Origin: a phage
Sequence record: PZ445524.1
Reading direction: 5' to 3' (one strand)
Length of the DNA stretch: 64,000 nucleotides
The notes beneath the pieces are model-generated. The model searched no databases. It was not told the origin of the DNA and worked only from the letters and a program-made list of their open reading frames with translations. Below are positions 4,308-58,515 of this stretch, piece after piece (the stretch's first letter is position 1; each line of letters begins with the position of its first letter). The position numbers and the translations under genes are program-made.

Positions 4308-4370
4308 CATATTAATTTCCTCTAAATTATTTTCTACTCCAAGGCCGCATGAATACACACGGCCATTAAA

Positions 4371-5020: not shown

Positions 5021-5048
5021 TTTCTGTTCCTCCGTAGTTGATAGGGTA

Positions 5049-5078
5049 ATAGTACCACGGAAGAACAGTCTTGTAAAC
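5049..5078 (-). promoter_or_regulatory. early promoter with conserved leader
   Basis: GTTTAC-N18-TACTAT on minus strand, leader ...CAACTACGGAGGAACAGAAA-ATG. Confidence 0.55.
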
Positions 5079-10430: not shown

Positions 10431-10480
10431 TCCAATAATCTCTTAATTATGAGGTATTTCTATAGATAGCCCGAAGGCTA
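10431..10480 (-). other. 60: 50-nt untranslated coding gap of gene 60 (translational bypass element)
   Basis: take-off GGA 10483-10481, stop UAG 10480-10478, UAGCC-UUCG-GGCUA hairpin 10481-10466, landing GGA 10433-10431. Confidence 0.9.
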
Positions 10481-10618
10481 TCCATCGTGATCTGCGTCTG
10501 TCATAATAGCGACATTCGCATAGTTCATTGAAGAGGATTTAATAGAACGACGAACATTGTTCTGCAATTTATATTTTTTCATATCAACGCTAGAAGAATC
10601 AATTTTTACAAATTTCAT
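10481..10618 (-). CDS. 60: DNA topoisomerase II small subunit gp60, segment 1 (codons 1-46)
   Basis: MKFVKIDSSSVDMKKYKLQNNVRRSIKSSSMNYANVAIMTDADHDG then UAG; GyrB-C-terminal-like TDADxDG motif. Confidence 0.9.
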
Positions 10619-13284: not shown

Positions 13285-13652
13285 TTAAATTTAATGGCTT
13301 GAAGAAGACTAATAACTCTCAAGCGGCTTCTTTCATCTTTAACTGTAAAAGAAAGAGGGTCACCAGATTTCATAGTGATAGTGCATCCAAAATCAAAATT
13401 TTCGGGAACTTCTTCGAAGAAGTCAAATTCTTCAGCATAAATTAGAACATTACTCTGCATACTGTGAAGAATTTTTCCATTATTTCCAGACGCTGTACTA
13501 ATCATCGTAACATTATGACCTTTCATATCTTCAACGATAAATTCGCTTGTAGATATTACAGCATTAATAGAACCATTCCTATAAATAGCAGACATTAGAT
13601 ATTTCTTTTCTTCGCCTTCGCGAATACGATATTTCTTACCGATTTTAAACAT
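13281..13652 (-). CDS. hypothetical protein (123 aa)
   Basis: track ORF starts at GTG 13658; first ATG at 13652. Confidence 0.6.
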   Translation of the reverse strand: MFKIGKKYRIREGEEKKYLMSAIYRNGSINAVISTSEFIVEDMKGHNVTMISTASGNNGKILHSMQSNVLIYAEEFDFFEEVPENFDFGCTITMKSGDPLSFTVKDERSRLRVISLLQAIKFK

Positions 13653-13654
13653 AA

Positions 13655-13831
13655 TCACCCTTTAAGTAAGTCGTAAAAACCACCATTCACATGCTTAGGA
13701 GCAGAAGGCCGACGAGTAGACAAACGATGACATTTAGGGCAAACATCATTTTCTCGTTCAGAAATCTTTTTAATTTTTTCATATTCATGCCCGCAGTCTT
13801 CAGATTGGCATTTATAATCATACATTGGCAT
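13655..13831 (-). CDS. small zinc-ribbon protein (58 aa)
   Basis: hand-translated MPMYDYKCQSEDCGHEYEKIKKISERENDVCPKCHRLSTRRPSAPKHVNGGFYDLLKG; two CxxC pairs; below track cut-off. Confidence 0.55.
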   Translation of the reverse strand: MPMYDYKCQSEDCGHEYEKIKKISERENDVCPKCHRLSTRRPSAPKHVNGGFYDLLKG

Positions 13832-13833
13832 AA

Positions 13834-14253
13834 TTATTCCTTAAAATGAGCTTTCAGCATCTGATACAAAGACCATGCCTGTTCATTATTTTCAATAGTA
13901 ACTTTCATTACCGGGAATTCTGTGAAATCTTCTATTTGTTCTTGCTCTTCCTGCTCTTGTTCTTCAGCAGCCTGATATGGATTTTCAACTTCGTCAAAGA
14001 ACCCAGCTTCGTTAGTAGAGAGCCAGATAAAGTTTTCGTCAAGGATATCACCGCCGGCACAACGTTTGAGTACACCTATGGATGTCATAATTTTAGTAGG
14101 ACGCCCAAGATAATCAGCATCTAAAATTTTAAAAGGCTCCATACCTAAACGTCGTGCATAGATTCCGTTATCAGTATGGTCTTTAATAAAATTTTCTTGA
14201 GCTTGTTTATTTTTAAATTGATACCATTTATTAACTTCAAATTTAATAGCCAT
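13834..14253 (-). CDS. hypothetical acidic protein (139 aa)
   Basis: ORF track; [10 protein letters not shown] acidic stretch. Confidence 0.6.
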
Positions 14254-14468
14254 TAATAAATTTCCTTCCAGTAAGTTGTGCCGTCTTCAGTAATTTCACG
14301 AAATACACCGTAAATTGGCTGTTTATCACCGACTTTCTCATACACATAAACAGAAGTCAAGTGAGTAAACTTGCTAGTATGTTCCTTTTGAACTACTACC
14401 AAATTTGGATCAAATAATACATCTTCAAATTCGTCATTAGTGCAATTCTGAACAATTTTACGTTTCAT
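14253..14468 (-). CDS. hypothetical protein (71 aa)
   Basis: ORF track; 1-nt overlap with upstream gene. Confidence 0.55.
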
Positions 14469-14481
14469 TATAATTTCCTCA

Positions 14482-14751
14482 TTAATTGAACATTGGAGCG
14501 ATACGTTTCAGAAGAGTAGCAGCACCTTTGGCGAATTTTACATCATGAAAAACAGTTTCTTCTTCCGTTACAACACGAACTTTAATGTTTTCACAATCCC
14601 AATTTTTACGAACAATCTTCAAAAGCTGCAGTAAATCTTTACATTCAGCAATATCGATAACACATCCACGAGAATCTTCCATTATCGCACGATAACCGTA
14701 AGCCATACCATAATCGTTGAAAGATTGCTCGATGATAATTAAGTTTTCCAT
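14482..14751 (-). CDS. hypothetical protein (89 aa)
   Basis: track ORF starts at TTG in leader; trimmed to ATG (MENLIIIEQ) after GGAG. Confidence 0.55.
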   Translation of the reverse strand: MENLIIIEQSFNDYGMAYGYRAIMEDSRGCVIDIAECKDLLQLLKIVRKNWDCENIKVRVVTEEETVFHDVKFAKGAATLLKRIAPMFN

Positions 14752-14775
14752 TTTATTCTCCAAGTTGTTTTCTGT

Positions 14776-14818
14776 ATCAGTAGTTGATATTGATATAGTA
14801 CCATAATCAACTACTGAT
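14776..14818. repeat. 13-bp perfect inverted repeat flanking a promoter -10 element
   Basis: atcagtagttgat (14776-14788) and atcaactactgat (14806-14818) are exact reverse complements, 17 bp apart. Confidence 0.8.
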
Positions 14819-14848
14819 GTATATAGTTTTATGAAAAAATTTTAAACT

Positions 14849-15346
14849 TTATGCACAGCGAGCTTTGCTATAGTGTTTAATCCAACTTTCAGGAATGACT
14901 TTGTATGTTCCTAAAAATACCGCGTTGTACAGCTTAACACCATCTTCTACCCACTGATCGGTAATGTATGCGCACATAGCACGAGTACGGTGTTTTTGAA
15001 CAACCCCTTCCTCATCTTCAGTAAATTCGAATTCATAAGGAGCAACGAACTTGATAGCTTGACCGAGTTTCCACTTAAAGTCTACACCTACATGCGAAGT
15101 ATCAATCGTTTCAATTCCTTTAGCAGGAACAGCTTTCAAAAACGCAGATTCAAGAAATTTCGCGCGAACATAACCAAACTGAGGTTTAGACTTTCCATCT
15201 TTAGGAATGATACGCACTTTTACTTCAGAATCTTCATCTTTAACGCCGTGTTTAAGCTGAATGCTTACAATTTCGACCAATTTTCCTGCTGCTTTAGAAC
15301 GGGATTTATCAGATACACGAGCAATTTCACCAATATTAATAATCAT
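14849..15346 (-). CDS. hypothetical protein (165 aa), MotB-region paralog A
   Basis: ORF track; C-terminal block CAYITDQWVEDGVKLYNAVFLG resembles that of 15423..15965. Confidence 0.6.
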   Translation of the reverse strand: MIINIGEIARVSDKSRSKAAGKLVEIVSIQLKHGVKDEDSEVKVRIIPKDGKSKPQFGYVRAKFLESAFLKAVPAKGIETIDTSHVGVDFKWKLGQAIKFVAPYEFEFTEDEEGVVQKHRTRAMCAYITDQWVEDGVKLYNAVFLGTYKVIPESWIKHYSKARCA

Positions 15347-15422
15347 AGTTATCTCTCACTTGTTAAAAAGATTTTATACTCCGCGGGACCATTATACTCT
15401 GGTCCCAAGAGTTTGTAAACTA

Positions 15423-15965
15423 TTAATTTAAAATAGCTACCACCGCACTACGAGGTACTACGCTAAAATCACCTGCATGAACAACGTTCAGAAGTTCAAC
15501 ACCATCTTCAATCCATTGGTCTGTTACCCAACCACAGACCGAAATAAATGGGGTCTTAATAGCTACTGCATGAGTCAAAAGGTCAGTAGGATCAACTTCT
15601 TTGAAGAGGATAAGCTCTGCTTCAAAGACTATAGTTTTAATTACTTCATCATTATCTAAGCGATGTGCTCGAATCACGTAAGCTTTATTCTTATCATACC
15701 AGTTACTTTTTGAAAAGCTTTTAACCACAAACTCGCCTTCACCAAAAGCATTAGTCAATGCTTTATAACCCAAATTTAGTTCAGTAGTTTTAATTTCAGT
15801 TTCAACCAGTTTGTAGGTTTTGCCAATTTCGATGGTCCGAGCAGTCATAAATGTTTCCTTAATTTCTAATGGTTTAACAAGAGTGCCGTACATGCTTGCT
15901 ATATCCATATCAAACGGTTTATCTACAGGATTCGGTGTGTATTCAGGATTATAATTAAATTTCAT
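15423..15965 (-). CDS. hypothetical protein (180 aa), MotB-region paralog B
   Basis: ORF track; C-terminal block CGWVTDQWIEDGVELLNVVHAG. Confidence 0.6.
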   Translation of the reverse strand: MKFNYNPEYTPNPVDKPFDMDIASMYGTLVKPLEIKETFMTARTIEIGKTYKLVETEIKTTELNLGYKALTNAFGEGEFVVKSFSKSNWYDKNKAYVIRAHRLDNDEVIKTIVFEAELILFKEVDPTDLLTHAVAIKTPFISVCGWVTDQWIEDGVELLNVVHAGDFSVVPRSAVVAILN

Positions 15966-15967
15966 AA

Positions 15968-16468
15968 TTATCTCATTTCAATAAAATCTACGAGTTCAGC
16001 ATGCGATTTGCGGAACATTACTTGATGCCCACCAATGATAACTTCATCTTCAGGAACTTCGTATACAGCGAGATAAAATCCTTTAGAAGATAATTCTTCC
16101 CGCTCTTCTCGTGTGAACCATCTCATCATATCATACTCACTAGCGAAAGCAAAATGATAAAGAGCTATAAACCATCCTGGAATATGATATTCTACTCCAA
16201 CATAATCTTTCTTGAACTTAGTATTAATTACTATATTAGCGTTTTTAACTAATAGTTTATCTTCGTGTGGTAAAGGAATTCTTTTATTATTATCGCTATG
16301 ATGCATAAAATTAGGTCTGTCATAACCTACGTGTAATAGCCACTCTTCGCTCCATGAATCTATTATACTCCTGTACGGCGTTATTTGAACACAAAGATTT
16401 CGACGTATTGTTATAGCGTCTTCATAATCAAGAATACTAAACGATGATTCAACACGATAAATTTTCAT
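15968..16468 (-). CDS. hypothetical protein (166 aa)
   Basis: ORF track; early promoter GTTTAC-N18-TATTAT upstream at about 16506-16535. Confidence 0.6.
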   Translation of the reverse strand: MKIYRVESSFSILDYEDAITIRRNLCVQITPYRSIIDSWSEEWLLHVGYDRPNFMHHSDNNKRIPLPHEDKLLVKNANIVINTKFKKDYVGVEYHIPGWFIALYHFAFASEYDMMRWFTREEREELSSKGFYLAVYEVPEDEVIIGGHQVMFRKSHAELVDFIEMR

Positions 16469-16532
16469 TTTTATTATCCTCAGTAGCTATGGTGTTATAA
16501 TACCATAACTAACCGAGGAAGTAAACAACTTT

Positions 16533-17216
16533 TTATCGTTTTGTTGGAAGAGATAGAGGATCGCATTCTTCCTCTGATGGAGCGTCTTCAAGACCCATAG
16601 CATACCGCAAAGCATACTTCATCATCAGGATGTCTTTCGCACAGTCATGAATAGAATCATGTGCAACAAATCCATCTAAAGTTCCCTTTGGAAGGGGGCA
16701 TGTGGTCATATCACGAACAAGGAGAAGTGCTTCAATTCTGGTACGAATATCACGCTGATTCCAGAATTTACATGGTTCTAACTTAAATGTGTCAAGTTCA
16801 TTCTCAGAAACACCATTAAGACGTTGAATATCACGAATGAGATCGACTAAAATTGGAAAATCAAACGACATTCCACGGCACCAGCCTTGAGATTTCCAAG
16901 GATCGATATTATGCGCATTGATGTAATCATTAAATTTTGCAATACCATCGATGGTGCTTACATCTTCATCTGATGGTGCAATATTTTTTCGAGCTTCAGG
17001 AGACTGATTTTTCCACCATTCGATAGTGCTTTTAGTAAAAAGACGATGTCCTTTTTGGCTTTTTAAATCAAATTTGATTTTAATGCCGCGTGAAACTAAT
17101 TCATCAAATGTTTCAACTACTTCTGGGTTAGGGTCAAAAGCAATTACAGCTAAATCAATAACAGCTGCTTTTTCACCACTTCCCATTGTTTCAAAATCTA
17201 TAATAAAATCAAACAT
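16533..17216 (-). CDS. dexA: exonuclease A (DEDD-family 3'-5' exonuclease)
   Basis: 227 aa, T4 DexA length; N-terminal DFET motif; position upstream of dda region. Confidence 0.85.
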   Translation of the reverse strand: MFDFIIDFETMGSGEKAAVIDLAVIAFDPNPEVVETFDELVSRGIKIKFDLKSQKGHRLFTKSTIEWWKNQSPEARKNIAPSDEDVSTIDGIAKFNDYINAHNIDPWKSQGWCRGMSFDFPILVDLIRDIQRLNGVSENELDTFKLEPCKFWNQRDIRTRIEALLLVRDMTTCPLPKGTLDGFVAHDSIHDCAKDILMMKYALRYAMGLEDAPSEEECDPLSLPTKR

Positions 17217-17491
17217 TAAATTTTCCTTGCTAAATCGCGAATTTGACCTACAGTATAGTCTTGAATATAAACTTTATTAATAGGTTCATCAATAAATTTT
17301 GCCATAGATTCAATATCTTTTTGCATCTCTTCAAGACTGTATATTATCTTTAAAGCTTTTTCGCGAATAGTAATATTTTCAGGACCAGAATTTTTCTCAA
17401 TGACAGCTTTAACATTTGTCATAAGAGATTTAAACTGACACCAACTTAATTCAATCATTAATAACCGCCTTATAAAGATGGCTAATTTCAC
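17216..17491 (-). CDS. hypothetical protein (91 aa)
   Basis: ORF track. Confidence 0.55.
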   Translation of the reverse strand: MKLAIFIRRLLMIELSWCQFKSLMTNVKAVIEKNSGPENITIREKALKIIYSLEEMQKDIESMAKFIDEPINKVYIQDYTVGQIRDLARKI

Positions 17492-17711
17492 CTAAAATGT
17501 AATCACTGATTGTAACAGTTTTTACTTCACCACAAAAGAATTCTAACGCAATCAAATCTCGTTCAATTTCTTCCAATTGAAGCATTAACTTGCCTGATTC
17601 AGTTTTCACATTTTTGCGATTTTTGCTATAAGCTATTTCATAAATTTCGCTTACTTTATCTTGAAGAAGATAAAACTGATCTTTAGTTATTTCCACGAAT
17701 AGCTTCCTCAA
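17451..17711 (-). CDS. hypothetical protein (86 aa)
   Basis: ORF track. Confidence 0.55.
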   Translation of the reverse strand: MRKLFVEITKDQFYLLQDKVSEIYEIAYSKNRKNVKTESGKLMLQLEEIERDLIALEFFCGEVKTVTISDYILGEISHLYKAVIND

Positions 17712-17717
17712 ATTTAA

Positions 17718-19037
17718 TCATACATAAAATACATCATAACGACCACGGGTAACACCAACATAAAGAAGTTGTTGGGCCAATTCAGCATCTGCATAATGAA
17801 TACAAGGCGTATAAATGAAAGCACGGTCTACAGACATACCCTGAGCTTTATGGAATGTTGATGCAGGAAGTGCTTTCACTTTACTGAACTGTGATTTAGC
17901 ATCCCAAAAATCACTCCACGGAGCTTTTCCGCCTTTGTTCCAATTTTTATAAGTTTCTGCCGTTTTACCTAAAAATAAATTAAACTTATATAGCTCTTCA
18001 TCAGATGAAATTATTTTAATCTTTTCACGATAATATTCATCATCGCCGTAAGTTTCTACTGTTAAATCCCAATGACGAATTAAGTATTCTCCAGAAACAC
18101 CACGAGCTTTAACAAAGGTTGATGTATACTCTGCTTCTATAATACGAACTAATTGTCCGTTATTAAAAATAATTTCTGACACAGGCTTTCCATCAATTTT
18201 ATATGTTTTAATTAATGGTTCCTGCATTACAATAATTTCACCGACAATAAAATCTTTATCAGTTTCAAAAATCTTTTTACGAATAATGCTATTTAACTTG
18301 TCAACAGATTTATTCGTAAATGCCATTACACGATTTTCAAACAAATCATCTAGTGATTTGACGATTGAAAAATAATTTACCATAAAATCGCGTAAAGCGG
18401 TATCACCAGTAAATCCACGTACTCCATGCCCGTCAACAACTTTATCATAAATCCACTTACCGTTACGAACGTCAGTAGCTACATCAATAATAGGAGCATT
18501 ACTGCGTTTAACTTCAGTGAGTTCACACTGATAAAAATCTTTATGTGTAAAGAATGGACTGATATAAGCAGTATTTTCTCCTGGGTCAACAGGTCTAATT
18601 TGCTTATTATCACCTATTCCAATTATGGTACACCAAGGTGGAATAGTTGAAAGCAGAATTTTAAATAGCTTTCTATCATACATTGACACTTCGTCGCAGA
18701 TTAATACCCTGCATTTAGCTAAATCTGGTACTTCCTTCTGCTCGAAGAGGACATTTTCTTCATATGTTACCGGGTTAATTTTAAGAATGCTATGAATAGT
18801 ACTTGCTTCTTTCCCTGATAGTTTTGAAAGAATCTTTTTAGCTGCATGAGTAGGAGCTGCTAAAATAATACCAGTTTCACCCGTAGATATTAAAGCTTCA
18901 ATGATGAACTTAGTAAGAGTAGTCTTACCAGTACCAGCAGGTCCATTAATAGTTACATGATGTTTCTTTTCTTTAATAGCCTTCATAACAATGTTAAAGG
19001 CATTTTTTTGACCTTCGGTCAAATCATCAAATGTCAT
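17718..19037 (-). CDS. dda: Dda DNA helicase (SF1B)
   Basis: 439 aa; Walker A GPAGTGKTT; T4 Dda length. Confidence 0.95.
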   Translation of the reverse strand: MTFDDLTEGQKNAFNIVMKAIKEKKHHVTINGPAGTGKTTLTKFIIEALISTGETGIILAAPTHAAKKILSKLSGKEASTIHSILKINPVTYEENVLFEQKEVPDLAKCRVLICDEVSMYDRKLFKILLSTIPPWCTIIGIGDNKQIRPVDPGENTAYISPFFTHKDFYQCELTEVKRSNAPIIDVATDVRNGKWIYDKVVDGHGVRGFTGDTALRDFMVNYFSIVKSLDDLFENRVMAFTNKSVDKLNSIIRKKIFETDKDFIVGEIIVMQEPLIKTYKIDGKPVSEIIFNNGQLVRIIEAEYTSTFVKARGVSGEYLIRHWDLTVETYGDDEYYREKIKIISSDEELYKFNLFLGKTAETYKNWNKGGKAPWSDFWDAKSQFSKVKALPASTFHKAQGMSVDRAFIYTPCIHYADAELAQQLLYVGVTRGRYDVFYV

Positions 19038-20819: not shown

Positions 20820-21439
20820 TCAACTACCTCAATATCATAAACTTTAAATGTTCCAAATGAATCGTGTAATTTTTCTTTTGAAATAGAAGTTATTCTATAC
20901 TTTCCAATTGGAATCATCCATTCTTGTTCACGCACAATCATCATTAAGTTATCAGTACGCTCTGAATCTAGCCCATCAGTATCTTCATACGTGTACTTGA
21001 ACTCAGTATTAGGAGAAGAAAGTATAATATCGCTGATATGGTCAGAATAATTAAAAGCTTTATCAGTTTTTAAGCGAAGTATTATTTTAGTAAAATATTC
21101 AGCATAAGAAAAAGAACATGCTGTGAGTAAACTAGTAGTAAATGAATCTACCCTGTTCGTTGAAAACACTTCTCCAACTTGTAAATCTTTAATAAGTTCT
21201 TCTGTTGATTTTGATATACCACGATATAACTGATAAGGCGATTTAGTTAAATGCTTTTTAATGATTTTATTCAATTGCCGATGAAGAGCTTCATTCTTTT
21301 TGGCTTCCATACATTGCCAAAGAACAGATTGCTCAAAGTCAGTAAATTTTTCACAGACTTTTTTATACATATCATATTGAAAATCAACGCTTTCAGCTTT
21401 TATAGATAACTGTTCAACATCTGCAAGATTAATAATCAT
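20816..21439 (-). CDS. modB: ADP-ribosyltransferase ModB
   Basis: 207 aa; paralog of ModA with LYRG and EQEWMIP motifs. Confidence 0.8.
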   Translation of the reverse strand: MIINLADVEQLSIKAESVDFQYDMYKKVCEKFTDFEQSVLWQCMEAKKNEALHRQLNKIIKKHLTKSPYQLYRGISKSTEELIKDLQVGEVFSTNRVDSFTTSLLTACSFSYAEYFTKIILRLKTDKAFNYSDHISDIILSSPNTEFKYTYEDTDGLDSERTDNLMMIVREQEWMIPIGKYRITSISKEKLHDSFGTFKVYDIEVVE

Positions 21440-21506
21440 GATAGCCTCCGTATACTTCAGAAGCTATCATATCATCGTTAGGAAGGAAAGTAAACAACTT
21501 TTTGAA

Positions 21507-29628: not shown

Positions 29629-29991
29629 TTAAAAGAATTTAAATTTTTTCTTTGACCTTTTATTAAATGCATCTTGTAGTTGCATTGTAATACATTTTTC
29701 TACATGAGGAGCTAACTCAGCTTTTCTTTCTTGGTCAAGAACAGCAAAGTCCATTACAACCTTTCCATCAACCCAATCCAGTTTAGTTACATACACTATA
29801 TGTGTAGAACCATCTTCTAGTTTAATGACAATCTCCTGGATAACATTTTCCATAGCGGATTTAATTATCTTAAGAGACTCATTAAAAAGACGTTCTTTTC
29901 TTTCTTCTTCCCCCTCCGAAGAGGGGGATTCATCGATAATTTCTAGATCTAAATCTAAATCATCTTTATTCATTAAATTCTTCCATATCAC
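29629..29991 (-). CDS. 40: gp40 head vertex assembly chaperone (positional)
   Basis: 120 aa ORF between uvsX and 41, as gene 40 in T4. Confidence 0.6.
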   Translation of the reverse strand: MIWKNLMNKDDLDLDLEIIDESPSSEGEEERKERLFNESLKIIKSAMENVIQEIVIKLEDGSTHIVYVTKLDWVDGKVVMDFAVLDQERKAELAPHVEKCITMQLQDAFNKRSKKKFKFF

Positions 29992-34067: not shown

Positions 34068-34104
34068 TTCATTCTCCAAATCCGTATCAGTAGTTGATAG
34101 TTGT

Positions 34105-40359: not shown

Positions 40360-42042
40360 TTAAACCATTACAGTAAATCGACCAACTTTCTTCATTTGAA
40401 GATGCTGACCATATTCTTGCGGGTCATGGTCTTTATGCGAAATTATAAAAACATTAGTGTTTTTCATTGAATTTATAATATTAGCTACACCTTTAATACC
40501 TTCGGCATCAAATGACCCATCAAACACTTCATCGAGTATTAATGTACTAATACTAACACCAGATACAGTAGAAGCAATATCACGCCAAGTAAATAAAAGA
40601 GCAATATCAATTCTTGCTTTTTCACCTTCACTAAATGAAGCATAACTAAAATCTTCGCGACCACGGGATTTAATTGTCTCATTAAATTCTTCATCTAATG
40701 TAAACACATAATCCGCTTCCATTATTTTAAGATAATGGTTAATCTGCTTATTAAATAATGGAATGTACTTTTTAATAATAGCACCTTTAATACCAGAATC
40801 TTTGAGCATATCAGTCAAAATTCCTCGGTGGTATTTTTCCATTACTAAATTAGTTTTTGTCTTAACAATTTTATCAAGTTCTTCTTGAAGCAGTGCTATT
40901 TCATCAGCATGGTCAATAAACTCAGAAGATGCTTTTTCTATAGCCGCTTTAACCTTTTTAGCTTTATCTACTGCTGCGATCAGAGATTGCTTTTTATTGC
41001 GAATATCATTTGCCAACGACTGCTGGGTTTTAATATTATCTCGGTATTCATCAACAAGAACTTTTAAATTATCACGATGTGTTGAAAGCTGTTCAAACGA
41101 ATGCGTACATTCAGAAACTTTATCTTTAATTTTAGAAACAACTTTATCACCGGAACTCAATTGCGACAAACAGGTTGGACATAATCCACCTTCGTGATAC
41201 ATATTAATGACTTTATTATATGAGTCAATTTTTGATTTAATTAAAACTGCTTCTTGACCGATTTTATTAAATGCATCAGTCGGGTCTTCATCTAAAACAA
41301 TATTAACTAATCTTTCATTAGCTTCTTCTATTTCCGATTTTAGCGTTCTAGCTTCTTTTGCCAAATCATCATACATATTTTGCAGACGAGTAAGGTTGTC
41401 ACCCGTTAATTTTTTCTGGCGTTCAACGTTATCATTATATATTTTAATTTGTTGGATAATACTATCTTTTTTAACATCAAGCACTTGGTTTTGTGAATTT
41501 AATTCGCGTATTAGTGCTTTATTAAGCTTATCCATTTCAGCTAATGTTCCTACCTCGAGCAGGTCTTCCACAAGCTTTCTTCGCGCAGGGGTCGACAAAC
41601 CCATGAAAGGGGTATACCCTGCTGTACCAAGGACAACAATCTGCTTGAAACTGGCATATGACATTCCGATAAGCTGTTCAAATTCTGCTTGGAAATCTTT
41701 ACTGCTGGCAGATTCATTAAGACGTGTACCGTTAACGGTGATTTCGAAAACGTTTGGTTTTTGTCCTCTTTTGATATAATACTTTTTCTCATCATATTCC
41801 ATCCACAGTTCAACTAAAAGTTCTTTCTTATTTGTGCTGTTTATTAATTGACCTTTCTTTACATCGCGAAATGGCTTGCCAAAAAGCCCAAATGTGATGG
41901 CTTCTAGCATAGTAGACTTACCACCGCCATTTCGTCCAGTAATAAGAGTTTTTTGAACCTTATCTAATTGAATGTCAACTCCATTTTGACCAACTGACAT
42001 TATATTTTTATATTTTACTCTATTAAGTTTAAAATTCTTCAC
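40360..42042 (-). CDS. 46: recombination nuclease subunit (Rad50/SbcC-like ATPase)
   Basis: 560 aa; Walker A GRNGGGKST, coiled coil, CPTC zinc hook. Confidence 0.95.
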   Translation of the reverse strand: MKNFKLNRVKYKNIMSVGQNGVDIQLDKVQKTLITGRNGGGKSTMLEAITFGLFGKPFRDVKKGQLINSTNKKELLVELWMEYDEKKYYIKRGQKPNVFEITVNGTRLNESASSKDFQAEFEQLIGMSYASFKQIVVLGTAGYTPFMGLSTPARRKLVEDLLEVGTLAEMDKLNKALIRELNSQNQVLDVKKDSIIQQIKIYNDNVERQKKLTGDNLTRLQNMYDDLAKEARTLKSEIEEANERLVNIVLDEDPTDAFNKIGQEAVLIKSKIDSYNKVINMYHEGGLCPTCLSQLSSGDKVVSKIKDKVSECTHSFEQLSTHRDNLKVLVDEYRDNIKTQQSLANDIRNKKQSLIAAVDKAKKVKAAIEKASSEFIDHADEIALLQEELDKIVKTKTNLVMEKYHRGILTDMLKDSGIKGAIIKKYIPLFNKQINHYLKIMEADYVFTLDEEFNETIKSRGREDFSYASFSEGEKARIDIALLFTWRDIASTVSGVSISTLILDEVFDGSFDAEGIKGVANIINSMKNTNVFIISHKDHDPQEYGQHLQMKKVGRFTVMV

Positions 42043-49394: not shown

Positions 49395-51208
49395 TGGTGT
49401 TTAACCCTATGCATGATTTCTTTATTTTTGCCGAGATTAAATCCGCGTTCGTTCGGATTTCCCAAATAACCACACGTTCTTCTTATTGTGTTCATCTTTT
49501 TAGGATCAGTTTCTCCACAAATAGAACAAACAAATCCGTTTTCAGTAGGAGTCATTTCATGGGTACTTCCACATGTAAAACATTTATCTACTGGCATATT
49601 AACACCAAAATAATCTAAATGTTGTGCAGCATAATCCCACACGGCCTCAAGACCTTTCAAGTTATTTTTCATATCAGGAAGTTCAACATAAGAAATGTGA
49701 CCACCTGTCGCAATGAAATGATATGGCGCTTCACGAGAAATCTTTTCAAACGGAGTAATATTTTCTTCTACTGAAACATGGAAACTGTTAGTGTACCAAC
49801 CTTTATCGGTAACATCTTTTACGCTTCCATATTTTTCTGTATCGAGTTTACAGAAGCGATAACAAAGGTTTTCAGCAGGAGTCGAATATAAACTAAAAGC
49901 AAATCCAGTTCTTTCAGTCCACTGTTTAAGACGAGCATTCATTTTAGTTAAAATTTCTCGTCCAATATCACGACCGGCAAGAATATTCAATTCGTGAATA
50001 CCAATGTATCCTAAAGACACTGAACTTCTACCGTTTTTAAATAACTCAATTATGTCGTCATCAGGTTTAAGACGAACCCCGAATGCACCTTCTTGGTAAA
50101 GAATAGGAGCAACAGTAGCTTTAACTCCTTTTAAGGAACTAATTCTACACATCAAAGCTTCAAAACATAAATCCATTCGTTCATTAAATAGCTCAACAAA
50201 TTTCTGTTCATTGAACTGTGTTCCAATATAAGAATCTAACGCGATGCGAGGAAGATTCAGTGTTACAACACCAAGATTATTACGTCCATCAAGAATTTCA
50301 TTACCAGTCGAATCTTTCCATACGCTCAAGAAACTACGGCATCCCATCGGAGAAACAGGAACAGATGAACCAGTGATAGCTTTATTGTTCTTAGCTGAAA
50401 TAATATCAGGATACATCCTTTTGCTTGCACACTCTAGAGCAAGCTGCTTAATATCATAGTTCGGATCATCTTTATAAAGATTAACACCTTCTTCGACGAA
50501 CATAACAAGCTTAGGGAAAATAGGAGTTATCCCATCACGACCAAGACCTTTAATACGATTTTTCAGAATTGCTTTCTGAATCATTCGTTCAGTCCAGTCA
50601 GTTCCCGTACCAAATGTAATTGTTACAAAAGGTGTTTGCCCGTTTGAACTAAAGAGAGTATTTACTTCATATTCATAAGCTTGGAATGCATCGTATACGT
50701 CTTTTTCTGTTTTAGATTGAGCATAATTCAACGCATCAGCGATTTGCCATTTTTCTGCATCTTCAATATGTTTTGCATAGGTGCGTTTAACATAAGGAGA
50801 AAGTACTTTATCTACATTCGCAAAAGTCGTTCCGCCGTATTGGTGAGAAGCAACCTGTGCAGTAATTTGTGCCATAATTGCAGTAGCAACACCGATTGAT
50901 TTAGGAGTTTCAATCTGCGCATTACCAAGCTTAAATCCGTTCTCAAGCATTCCTTTTAAATCTACTAAACAGCAATTAGTAAATGGAAGAGCAGGGGAAT
51001 AATCAATATCATGGAAATGAATAATTCCGCTTTCATGCGCTTTCATAATAAAAGACGGGACCATATTTTTGGCAATGTGTTTAGACACAATACCAGCCAT
51101 AAGGTCCCGTTGAGTTGGAAAAACACGAGAATCTTTATTAGCATTCTCGTTTAAAAGGTCTTTATTAGTTTTATGAATCAATCCTTCAATTTCTTTTTCA
51201 ATTGTCAT
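49391..51208 (-). CDS. nrdD: anaerobic ribonucleoside-triphosphate reductase, uninterrupted
   Basis: 605 aa continuous ORF; C-terminal glycyl-radical and Cys-rich region; 4-nt overlap with nrdG. Confidence 0.95.
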   Translation of the reverse strand: MTIEKEIEGLIHKTNKDLLNENANKDSRVFPTQRDLMAGIVSKHIAKNMVPSFIMKAHESGIIHFHDIDYSPALPFTNCCLVDLKGMLENGFKLGNAQIETPKSIGVATAIMAQITAQVASHQYGGTTFANVDKVLSPYVKRTYAKHIEDAEKWQIADALNYAQSKTEKDVYDAFQAYEYEVNTLFSSNGQTPFVTITFGTGTDWTERMIQKAILKNRIKGLGRDGITPIFPKLVMFVEEGVNLYKDDPNYDIKQLALECASKRMYPDIISAKNNKAITGSSVPVSPMGCRSFLSVWKDSTGNEILDGRNNLGVVTLNLPRIALDSYIGTQFNEQKFVELFNERMDLCFEALMCRISSLKGVKATVAPILYQEGAFGVRLKPDDDIIELFKNGRSSVSLGYIGIHELNILAGRDIGREILTKMNARLKQWTERTGFAFSLYSTPAENLCYRFCKLDTEKYGSVKDVTDKGWYTNSFHVSVEENITPFEKISREAPYHFIATGGHISYVELPDMKNNLKGLEAVWDYAAQHLDYFGVNMPVDKCFTCGSTHEMTPTENGFVCSICGETDPKKMNTIRRTCGYLGNPNERGFNLGKNKEIMHRVKHQ

Positions 51209-56571: not shown

Positions 56572-57459
56572 TTAAGATTTAAGTAAATCAACAATTTTAA
56601 TTAACTTTTCACGCTCAGATTTAGCTTTACTACTCAATCCAGATAGTCTGAAAATTTCATCATCATATTGTTGAATAGAAATATTCAGCTCTTCAATCTG
56701 TTTATTAAAATAATCAATTTGTTCAGAATGTTTTTCGTTACTACGAAATGGTACAAGTTTTGTAGGCAATTTAGTTGAACTGGATTCATTCGGGCGATAA
56801 ATTAAAATGCAATTTGAACCAATCGGGCATTTAGCACCAGATGAATATTCTAACGTTCCAGCTTCTTTTAAAACTTCAAAAGCTAAACAGAGATGATGCC
56901 CCATATTAACATAATCTGTAGAGCGAGCTCTGATGTAATAATCATCTCCACGAGTACTAAATTTAAAGCATTTAAGGTCTTCTGTATTATTGGTCTTAAA
57001 AATCATTTGTTTATCTAGACCTTTAGCTAATCGAGCACCTAATGCTAATAATCGTCGTTGATTTTCCCACAAATCTGCGATCATTTGGTCGAATGATAAT
57101 TTCGGCATTAGTCGGCCATAAAGGTCATATCCTTTATTATAATTACGAAGGATTTCACTCGCGTTAATACGAGACAATGCTCCAATTTTATTAAGGGCTT
57201 TCATAATGCGATTAGATAAACTCATTCCAGACCCGTTTGTTCGCTGTAAATGTTTATCTAATCCAAACCCAATATCAACTTTAAATTTATCTAAAATTTC
57301 TGCATGAACATCTTTATCAATAACATTCAAATCCAAAGTTGGGTTAAATCTATGAAAAAATTTATCTGGCTCTCCACGACGAAGTACAGTCCATTCATTC
57401 AATTTTTTATTAACTAAAGATTTAATTACTGCATTGACATTATTAATTACTACTGACAT
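56572..57459 (-). CDS. hypothetical protein, coiled-coil-tailed family member 4 (295 aa)
   Basis: trimmed from TTG to ATG after GAGGAA; C-terminal coiled-coil-like tail. Confidence 0.65.
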   Translation of the reverse strand: MSVVINNVNAVIKSLVNKKLNEWTVLRRGEPDKFFHRFNPTLDLNVIDKDVHAEILDKFKVDIGFGLDKHLQRTNGSGMSLSNRIMKALNKIGALSRINASEILRNYNKGYDLYGRLMPKLSFDQMIADLWENQRRLLALGARLAKGLDKQMIFKTNNTEDLKCFKFSTRGDDYYIRARSTDYVNMGHHLCLAFEVLKEAGTLEYSSGAKCPIGSNCILIYRPNESSSTKLPTKLVPFRSNEKHSEQIDYFNKQIEELNISIQQYDDEIFRLSGLSSKAKSEREKLIKIVDLLKS

Positions 57460-58485: not shown

Positions 58486-58515
58486 ATAGTACCACAGAGG
58501 AACAGTCTTGTAAAC
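58486..58515 (-). promoter_or_regulatory. early promoter with conserved leader
   Basis: GTTTAC-N18-TACTATACAACTATCAACTACGGAGGAACAC. Confidence 0.55.

Follow-up and report, generated by a model that had tools for sequence, protein, structure and literature searches.

What a perfect 13-bp inverted repeat is doing between motB and the next gene, where it brackets the -10 box of a predicted promoter, is the question raised by positions 14776-14818 of the 64-kb stretch of phage DNA analysed here (the window). The window is a segment from a Tequatrovirus, T4-like but not T4 itself; its region 14400-15400 has its best match, at 98%, in Shigella phage ESh30, and T4 aligns to it in two pieces only. 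The two arms, ATCAGTAGTTGAT (14776-14788) and ATCAACTACTGAT (14806-14818), were verified to be perfectly reverse-complementary across a gap of 17 nt, and the centre of symmetry falls in the -10 hexamer TACTAT, both as in an earlier, sequence-only reading of this DNA. There is no longer perfect inverted repeat with a loop of up to 30 nt anywhere in the window, and from 60 dinucleotide-preserving shuffles we would expect a mean of 0.03 repeats of at least 13 bp per window. When mismatches are allowed, a repeat search extends the element to 20-nt arms with 85% complementarity and 3 nt between them. The next-longest perfect inverted repeats are those at 57210-57263 (12 bp, 30-nt loop), 18276-18320 (11 bp, 23 nt) and 40717-40763 (11 bp, 25 nt); altogether, the window contains 11 perfect inverted repeats of at least 10 bp, versus 3.2 expected by shuffling.

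Read 5′ to 3′ on the minus strand, the interval between motB and the downstream ORF is TAA - agtttaaaattttttcataaaact - aTATACA - TCAGTAGTTGAT - taTGg - TACTAT - atcaat - ATCAACTACTGAT - acagaaaacaactt - GGAG - aataaa - ATG (Table 1). Its parts (UP-like block, -35, TGn, -10, GGAG and ATG) were assigned by aligning it with canonical early promoters found elsewhere in the window, of the form ...ttttttca.aaaac.GTTTACa-N17-TACTATacaactATCAACTACTGAT.... The proposal that the repeat lies in the promoter region of the gene at 14482-14751 is supported; we predict that this is a T4-type early sigma-70 promoter. Its spacer has the early-promoter length of 17 nt, and its TATACA -35 is also present in the orthologous promoter of Dhakavirus. 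A promoter scan missed the target promoter because the score of the -35 lies under the cut-off of the scan. The sequence-only reading had one arm replacing the -35 hexamer, which is incorrect, since the alignment shows a degenerate -35 (ATATAC/TATACA, 14824-14818) at the canonical distance, upstream of an arm that occupies the spacer. Conversely, the identification of the other arm with the conserved leader was right: the same 13-mer, ATCAACTACTGAT, recurs exactly after the -10 of two other early promoters (1721-1733 and 34086-34098, minus strand), with near-exact copies at 5030 and 58467. If the start lies 7 nt past the -10, where the consensus of T4 early promoters (PMC1524935, PMC2988021) would put it, transcription would begin at 14788, that is, between the arms. 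We also considered a divergent promoter on the plus strand and rejected it: a TATAGT occurs there, but at the distance of a -35 stands TCTGTA (2/6), and there is no plus-strand gene downstream.

Table 1. Genes around the inverted repeat and parts of the predicted promoter element (positions in the window)
Feature	Positions	Strand	Remarks
dexA	16533-17216	-	
motB.2-like gene	15968-16468	-	
MotB-related 180-aa gene	15423-15965	-	
motB	14849-15346	-	Pfam PF17613 motB, E=6.5e-99; PHROG 1671; stop TAA 14851-14849
AT-rich, UP-element-like region agtttaaaattttttcataaaact	14825..14848	-	Aligns with ...attttttca(c/t)aaaac... in the 1769 and 34134 promoters
Degenerate -35 hexamer TATACA	14818..14823	-	ATATAC where other early promoters have GTTTAC; normal distance
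5′ hairpin arm AUCAGUAGUUGAU	14806..14818	-	Fills the promoter spacer, about -30 to -18
17-nt loop	14789..14805	-	Extended -10 (TGg 14803-14801, TACTAT 14800-14795) and discriminator atcaat
3′ hairpin arm AUCAACUACUGAU	14776..14788	-	Conserved early-promoter leader; putative +1 to +13 of own transcript
Shine-Dalgarno GGAG (14761-14758) and ATG (14751-14749) of the 89-aa ORF	14749..14761	-	Sequence reading
89-aa ORF, function unknown	14482-14751	-	PHROG 3720, E=3e-46; no Pfam match
cef	14253-14468	-	
goF	13834-14253	-	

Folding of the 43-mer as sense RNA gave -19.4 kcal/mol (z = -6.1), in a 43-nt structure with an 18-bp helix and a 2x2 internal loop: to the 13-bp stem, which is A/T-rich (G-C pairs are 4/13), the loop RNA can add an inner 5-bp helix by pairing UGGUA with UAUCA. 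As DNA, the element at 14776-14818 folds at -11.1 kcal/mol. The leader RNA of the element's own promoter, starting at 14788, is predicted to be unstructured (-0.6 kcal/mol). A scan of 14400-15200 on both strands with Rfam 15 gave no match at E <= 1.

The hairpin shares with intrinsic terminators its stability and its intergenic location directly after a stop codon, but it differs from them in its A/T-rich stem, its 17-nt loop and the sequence that follows the stem, ACAGAAAACAAC, which contains no U-tract. A terminator scan of 13500-17500 returned zero terminator-like sites, and we ruled out a classical terminator for the target hairpin because its stem is not followed by a U-tract. Likewise, the stem ends 14 nt (14775-14762) short of GGAG, so that it does not mask the ribosome-binding site. 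Given the absent U-tract and this gap to the Shine-Dalgarno, neither canonical termination nor Shine-Dalgarno masking, the two best-documented functions of hairpins, fits this copy.

The sequence-only reading suggested looking for the same symmetry in T4 and its relatives, and the identical 43-mer is found in T4 (NC_000866 6582-6624; AF158101) and in a total of 475 of the 498 records of the phage collection that have the region, among them T2, T4, T6, PST and RB phages. These counts come from BLAST against the phage collection, which was used because IMG/VR gave 7 motB loci and a metagenome scan 16. The flanking 43-mers are exact in fewer records (196 for the downstream and 72 for the upstream one). 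In the four variant types inspected (9 records; 10 records with one mismatch and 4 end-trimmed records were left out), all the changes are in the loop: TATGG to TGTGG in 5 records, TACTAT to TATTAT in 3, and atcaat to acaact in 1, the latter with three changed bases that match the canonical discriminator of other early promoters. The 5′ arm, i.e., the spacer, was thus unchanged in 484/484 records with a known 43-mer (475 exact plus 9 loop variants). With both arms constant throughout the inspected records, the target offers no covariation. The Tequatrovirus flanks have diverged by only a few percent, and conservation by itself does not distinguish selection for pairing from constraint on promoter and leader plus shallow divergence.

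Hairpins also occur at this site in other genera. Downstream of motB in Dhakavirus, the -35 (TATACA) and the -10 (TACTAT) are as in the target, but the arms are GGTAGGGTA/TACCCTATC; in Gaprivervirus, also downstream of motB, the arms are GATAGGG(T)/CCCTATC, with a short loop that lacks the -10, and lie directly before the cef ribosome-binding site. The hairpins of these two genera are of 7-10 bp. Mosigvirus-type genomes show, behind a motB paralogue, the arrangement GTTTAC-T-TCTCCTCTGGTT-ttgatattataaccatatc-AACCAGAGGAGAA-taatATG, which is a perfect 13-bp repeat with a 19-nt loop and the same spacer/leader geometry, and in which the 3′ arm is the Shine-Dalgarno. Since the hairpins of other genera are at shifted positions, what recurs is the structure, and not a base-by-base homology.

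Early promoters within hairpins are not limited to the target. We folded the -30 to +25 segment of each early-promoter candidate in the window (about 19), and in five of them the helix encloses the -10 and the fold has an energy of -19.7 to -23.7 kcal/mol (minus strand, 16526-16497, 15420-15391, the target at 14824-14795, 5078-5049 and 58515-58486). This is an enrichment of the class: among 3000 random windows of 56 nt, only 0.5% attain -19 kcal/mol, and the whole window contains only 17 loci at -19.5 kcal/mol or lower. At all five promoters, G.U pairs give the sense RNA a higher stability than the antisense RNA, and this strand asymmetry points to RNA rather than to duplex DNA. The Shine-Dalgarno of the next gene is inside the 3′ arm in three of the five (16526, 5078 and 58515). 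The hairpin of the motB promoter, PmotB (15391-15420, minus strand), pairs GGGACC with GGTCCC around TATAAT; in an alignment of Tequatrovirus, Gaprivervirus and Dhakavirus sequences its 7 pairs are paired in 100% of cells and 5 of them have changed on both sides, resulting in arm versions such as GGGGCC/GGCCCC, GGGGTC/GACCCC and GAGAGCC/GGCTCTC, and slid controls came nowhere close.

Three of these sister elements deserve a brief description. The one at 16497-16526 (minus strand), upstream of the motB.2-like gene and at the position of T4 promoter P8.1, forms a 17-pair hairpin of -23.7 kcal/mol, whose 3′ arm, ACCATAGCTACTGAGG, holds a GAGG Shine-Dalgarno 8 nt from the ATG; according to the folding, this ribosome-binding site would be masked in RNA reading through from dexA. 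Those at 5049-5078 and 58486-58515 (minus strand) are paralogous early promoters with spacers CTGTTCTTCCGTGG and CTGTTCCTCTGTGG, which pair with the leader CTACGGAGGAACA(G) and bury GGAGG; the two spacers differ by C/U opposite G, so that pairing is retained via G.U. Several T4-type early promoters, therefore, pair their spacer with the leader or the Shine-Dalgarno of the downstream gene, a translational aspect that is absent from the papers on PeSLs, the promoter and stem-loop cassettes considered below.

Arbiol et al. (2010, PMC2839356) described PeSLs (promoter-early stem-loops) as intergenic cassettes in which a sigma-70-like early promoter is combined with a stem-loop; the stem may precede the promoter, overlap the -35 or the -10, lie between the two boxes or follow the promoter. 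In the same work, one PeSL stem-loop reduced the expression of a downstream reporter as much as rrnB T1, and neighbouring cassettes were found to recombine, excising small genes as mini-circles (PMC2839356). The target resembles these cassettes in several respects. It is intergenic, with an early promoter that has an AT-rich upstream region and is followed by a Shine-Dalgarno and a start codon, as read from the sequence, and a stable stem-loop lies over the promoter, here a perfect 13-bp stem that encloses the -10. The design is multi-copy, with UP, -10, leader and Shine-Dalgarno blocks common to the promoters at 1769, 5802, 34134 and 59954, and the cassettes, of ~80-100 bp, are repeated at several genes. 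Additionally, it adjoins small variable genes, as shown by the deletion of the 89-aa ORF in T4 and by a different upstream gene in PP01. The T-even analogues are described as T4 early promoters with weaker, AT-rich stems (PMC2839356, PMC4122927). Comeau et al. (2014, PMC4122927) extended PeSLs to PST and T4 with a consensus, TTTACW-N17-TAYWAT, that the target fits except for its weak -35; there, the PST/T4 stems are said to sit just upstream of the promoter, whereas the stem of the target lies across it. The target also differs in that its stem is A/T-rich, unusually long and perfect, with a 3′ arm that is the leader itself, and the published promoter and terminator activities are those of a few RB49/phi1 elements. 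The target has every sequence-level feature of PeSLs for which it was tested, and the repeat is one example of an already described promoter-in-stem-loop design, not a new kind of element.

A similar topology is found in the T4 genes e, soc, 49 and I-TevI, where the promoter is within an inhibitory hairpin and the RNA from that promoter is made without the 5′ strand (reviewed in PMC3014915). The target would share this topology if initiation occurs 7 nt past the -10, as in the T4 consensus. However, the promoters of those genes are late and their 3′ strand buries the Shine-Dalgarno or the AUG, whereas the target promoter is early and its 3′ strand pairs with neither; the sisters at 16526, 5078 and 58515, in turn, do bury the Shine-Dalgarno.

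We favour, with a probability that we would put at about 0.55, the interpretation of promoter and stem-loop as a PeSL-type element, in which the hairpin serves as a boundary on motB read-through RNA and the cassette aids gene shuffling. The promoter would drive the 89-aa ORF and then cef and goF, and its spacer is perfectly complementary to the opening 13 nt of the leader. Initiation between the arms would leave the RNA from this promoter without the 5′ arm and, consequently, with an open 5′ UTR. The upstream gene is motB, whose transcripts are the source of RNA reading across the element; such read-through RNA would carry both arms and could fold into a hairpin of -19 kcal/mol, with 13 bp plus the inner 5 bp. 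Most likely, then, the hairpin forms in vivo only in RNA reading through from motB, where it may mark off the motB unit from the cef-goF unit, be it by attenuation, by endonucleolytic processing at the AU-rich upstream tract or by protection of RNA ends. The sequence-only reading had proposed, as one option, a stem on a read-through transcript acting as a processing or termination site; a hairpin restricted to read-through RNA is favoured by the comparative evidence, but classical termination is excluded by the lack of a U-tract. At the DNA level, the repeated promoter/leader cassette would be a plausible substrate for homologous exchange that shuffles small genes. It counts against this interpretation that the 3′ arm is conserved as leader also at promoters without the repeat. 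The element offers a convenient, perfectly conserved T4 test case for the role of promoter-embedded hairpins, and in a model phage.

Alternatively, pairing might not have been selected at all: the spacer could have gained an inverted copy of the leader by recombination or template switching between cassettes, and this copy would persist within the constrained promoter of a young, recombining clade. We consider this origin unlikely, although it deserves serious attention, because the leader arm is multi-copy and thus available for ectopic copying, the single isolate with the canonical acaact in its loop shows gene conversion between cassettes, the divergence of the Tequatrovirus flanks is small, and the target hairpin has the layout of neither a terminator nor a mask over the Shine-Dalgarno. 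Nevertheless, spacers are normally free to vary, and they do differ among the other early promoters of the window, whereas that of the target is fixed in 484 records; hairpins with other sequences recur at the site in other genera, once without a promoter; and the sister hairpin of PmotB shows compensatory change. The hairpin might instead be a processing site at which RNase III cuts the motB-cef read-through RNA within the irregular helix of 13 plus 5 bp, which we judge improbable. The sense helix of the target (18 bp, 43 nt, -19.4 kcal/mol) has roughly the dimensions of small RNase III substrates; but the hairpins at the site in Gaprivervirus and Dhakavirus, of only 7-10 bp, are too short, no match to Rfam or to another family was found, and a review of T4 post-transcriptional control that was searched makes no mention of RNase III.

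The other option of the sequence-only reading was an operator, with a dimeric phage or host protein binding the two 13-bp half-sites to repress the promoter. The perfect symmetry centred on the -10 agrees with it, and the shut-off of T4 early promoters, by a factor yet to be identified, needs neither AsiA nor ModA (PMC2988021). Yet 30 bp separate the centres of the half-sites, other early promoters have the leader half-site in a single copy, and the arms at this site in other genera are of unrelated sequence; likewise, the strand asymmetry of the hairpin class, which depends on the use of G.U pairs in the sisters, is meaningless for the recognition of duplex DNA, and there is no known candidate repressor. 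The operator has no support, and we regard it as the least credible of these explanations. Only slightly better placed, and still very improbable, is the idea that the leader box from +1 to +13 could be the recognition element of the early-promoter shut-off factor, the inverted duplicate providing a symmetric site of high affinity. In a milder version, likewise improbable, enclosing early promoters in hairpins would be a widespread means in T4 of tying the expression of each early gene to its own promoter: read-through RNA would be untranslatable or unstable for the next gene, and the target would represent a variant that does not involve the Shine-Dalgarno. The PeSL-type interpretation remains our preferred one for the target.

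The gene downstream of the element has its own history. The 89-aa ORF is intact in the window and in roughly half of the relatives, and is internally deleted in T4, T6 and others. In T4 (AF158101, 6483-6652), what survives in the annotated 170-bp motB-cef spacer is the promoter, the start codon and, out of frame, the final ~17 codons; given the internal deletion of the ORF, the T4 motB-cef intergenic region is a gene remnant, and the promoter then feeds cef-goF. The endpoints of the deletion fall outside the repeat. For the same region, the annotation of the 1992 T4 record M89919 consists of coding sequences only.

Upstream of the element, the 180-aa gene (15423-15965) has its C-terminal ~60 residues in common with MotB (PHROG 1671 match at residues 117-178; motif ...TDQWIEDGV...), and since it carries the C-terminal part of MotB, the dexA-cef cluster contains MotB-domain paralogues. 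Some Tequatroviruses (PP01, 1606-1714; RB10-type) contain a Mosigvirus-like motB allele and a 139-aa paralogue, followed by the T4-type promoter-hairpin cassette. In PP01, the cassette is joined at a duplicated GCATAA, which comprises the last codon and stop common to motB-family genes; from its sequence, the GCATAA junction of PP01-type genomes looks like a recombination joint.

Finally, the window contains other hairpins of potential interest. At 21405-21490 (minus strand) there is a hairpin of ~19 bp and -21 kcal/mol, with GATGATATGATAGCTTCTG paired with CGGAGGCTATCATGATTATT, that buries the GGAGG and ATG of the gene beginning ATGATTATTAATC and resembles the hairpins known to inhibit translation initiation in T4. 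The 17 most stable 56-nt folds of the window also include strong G+C-rich hairpins at 1802-1823, 4343-4364, 10465-10486, 29908-29927 and 51050-51110, those at 1802 and 51050 scoring on both strands; these five are probably transcription terminators or RNA stabilisers.
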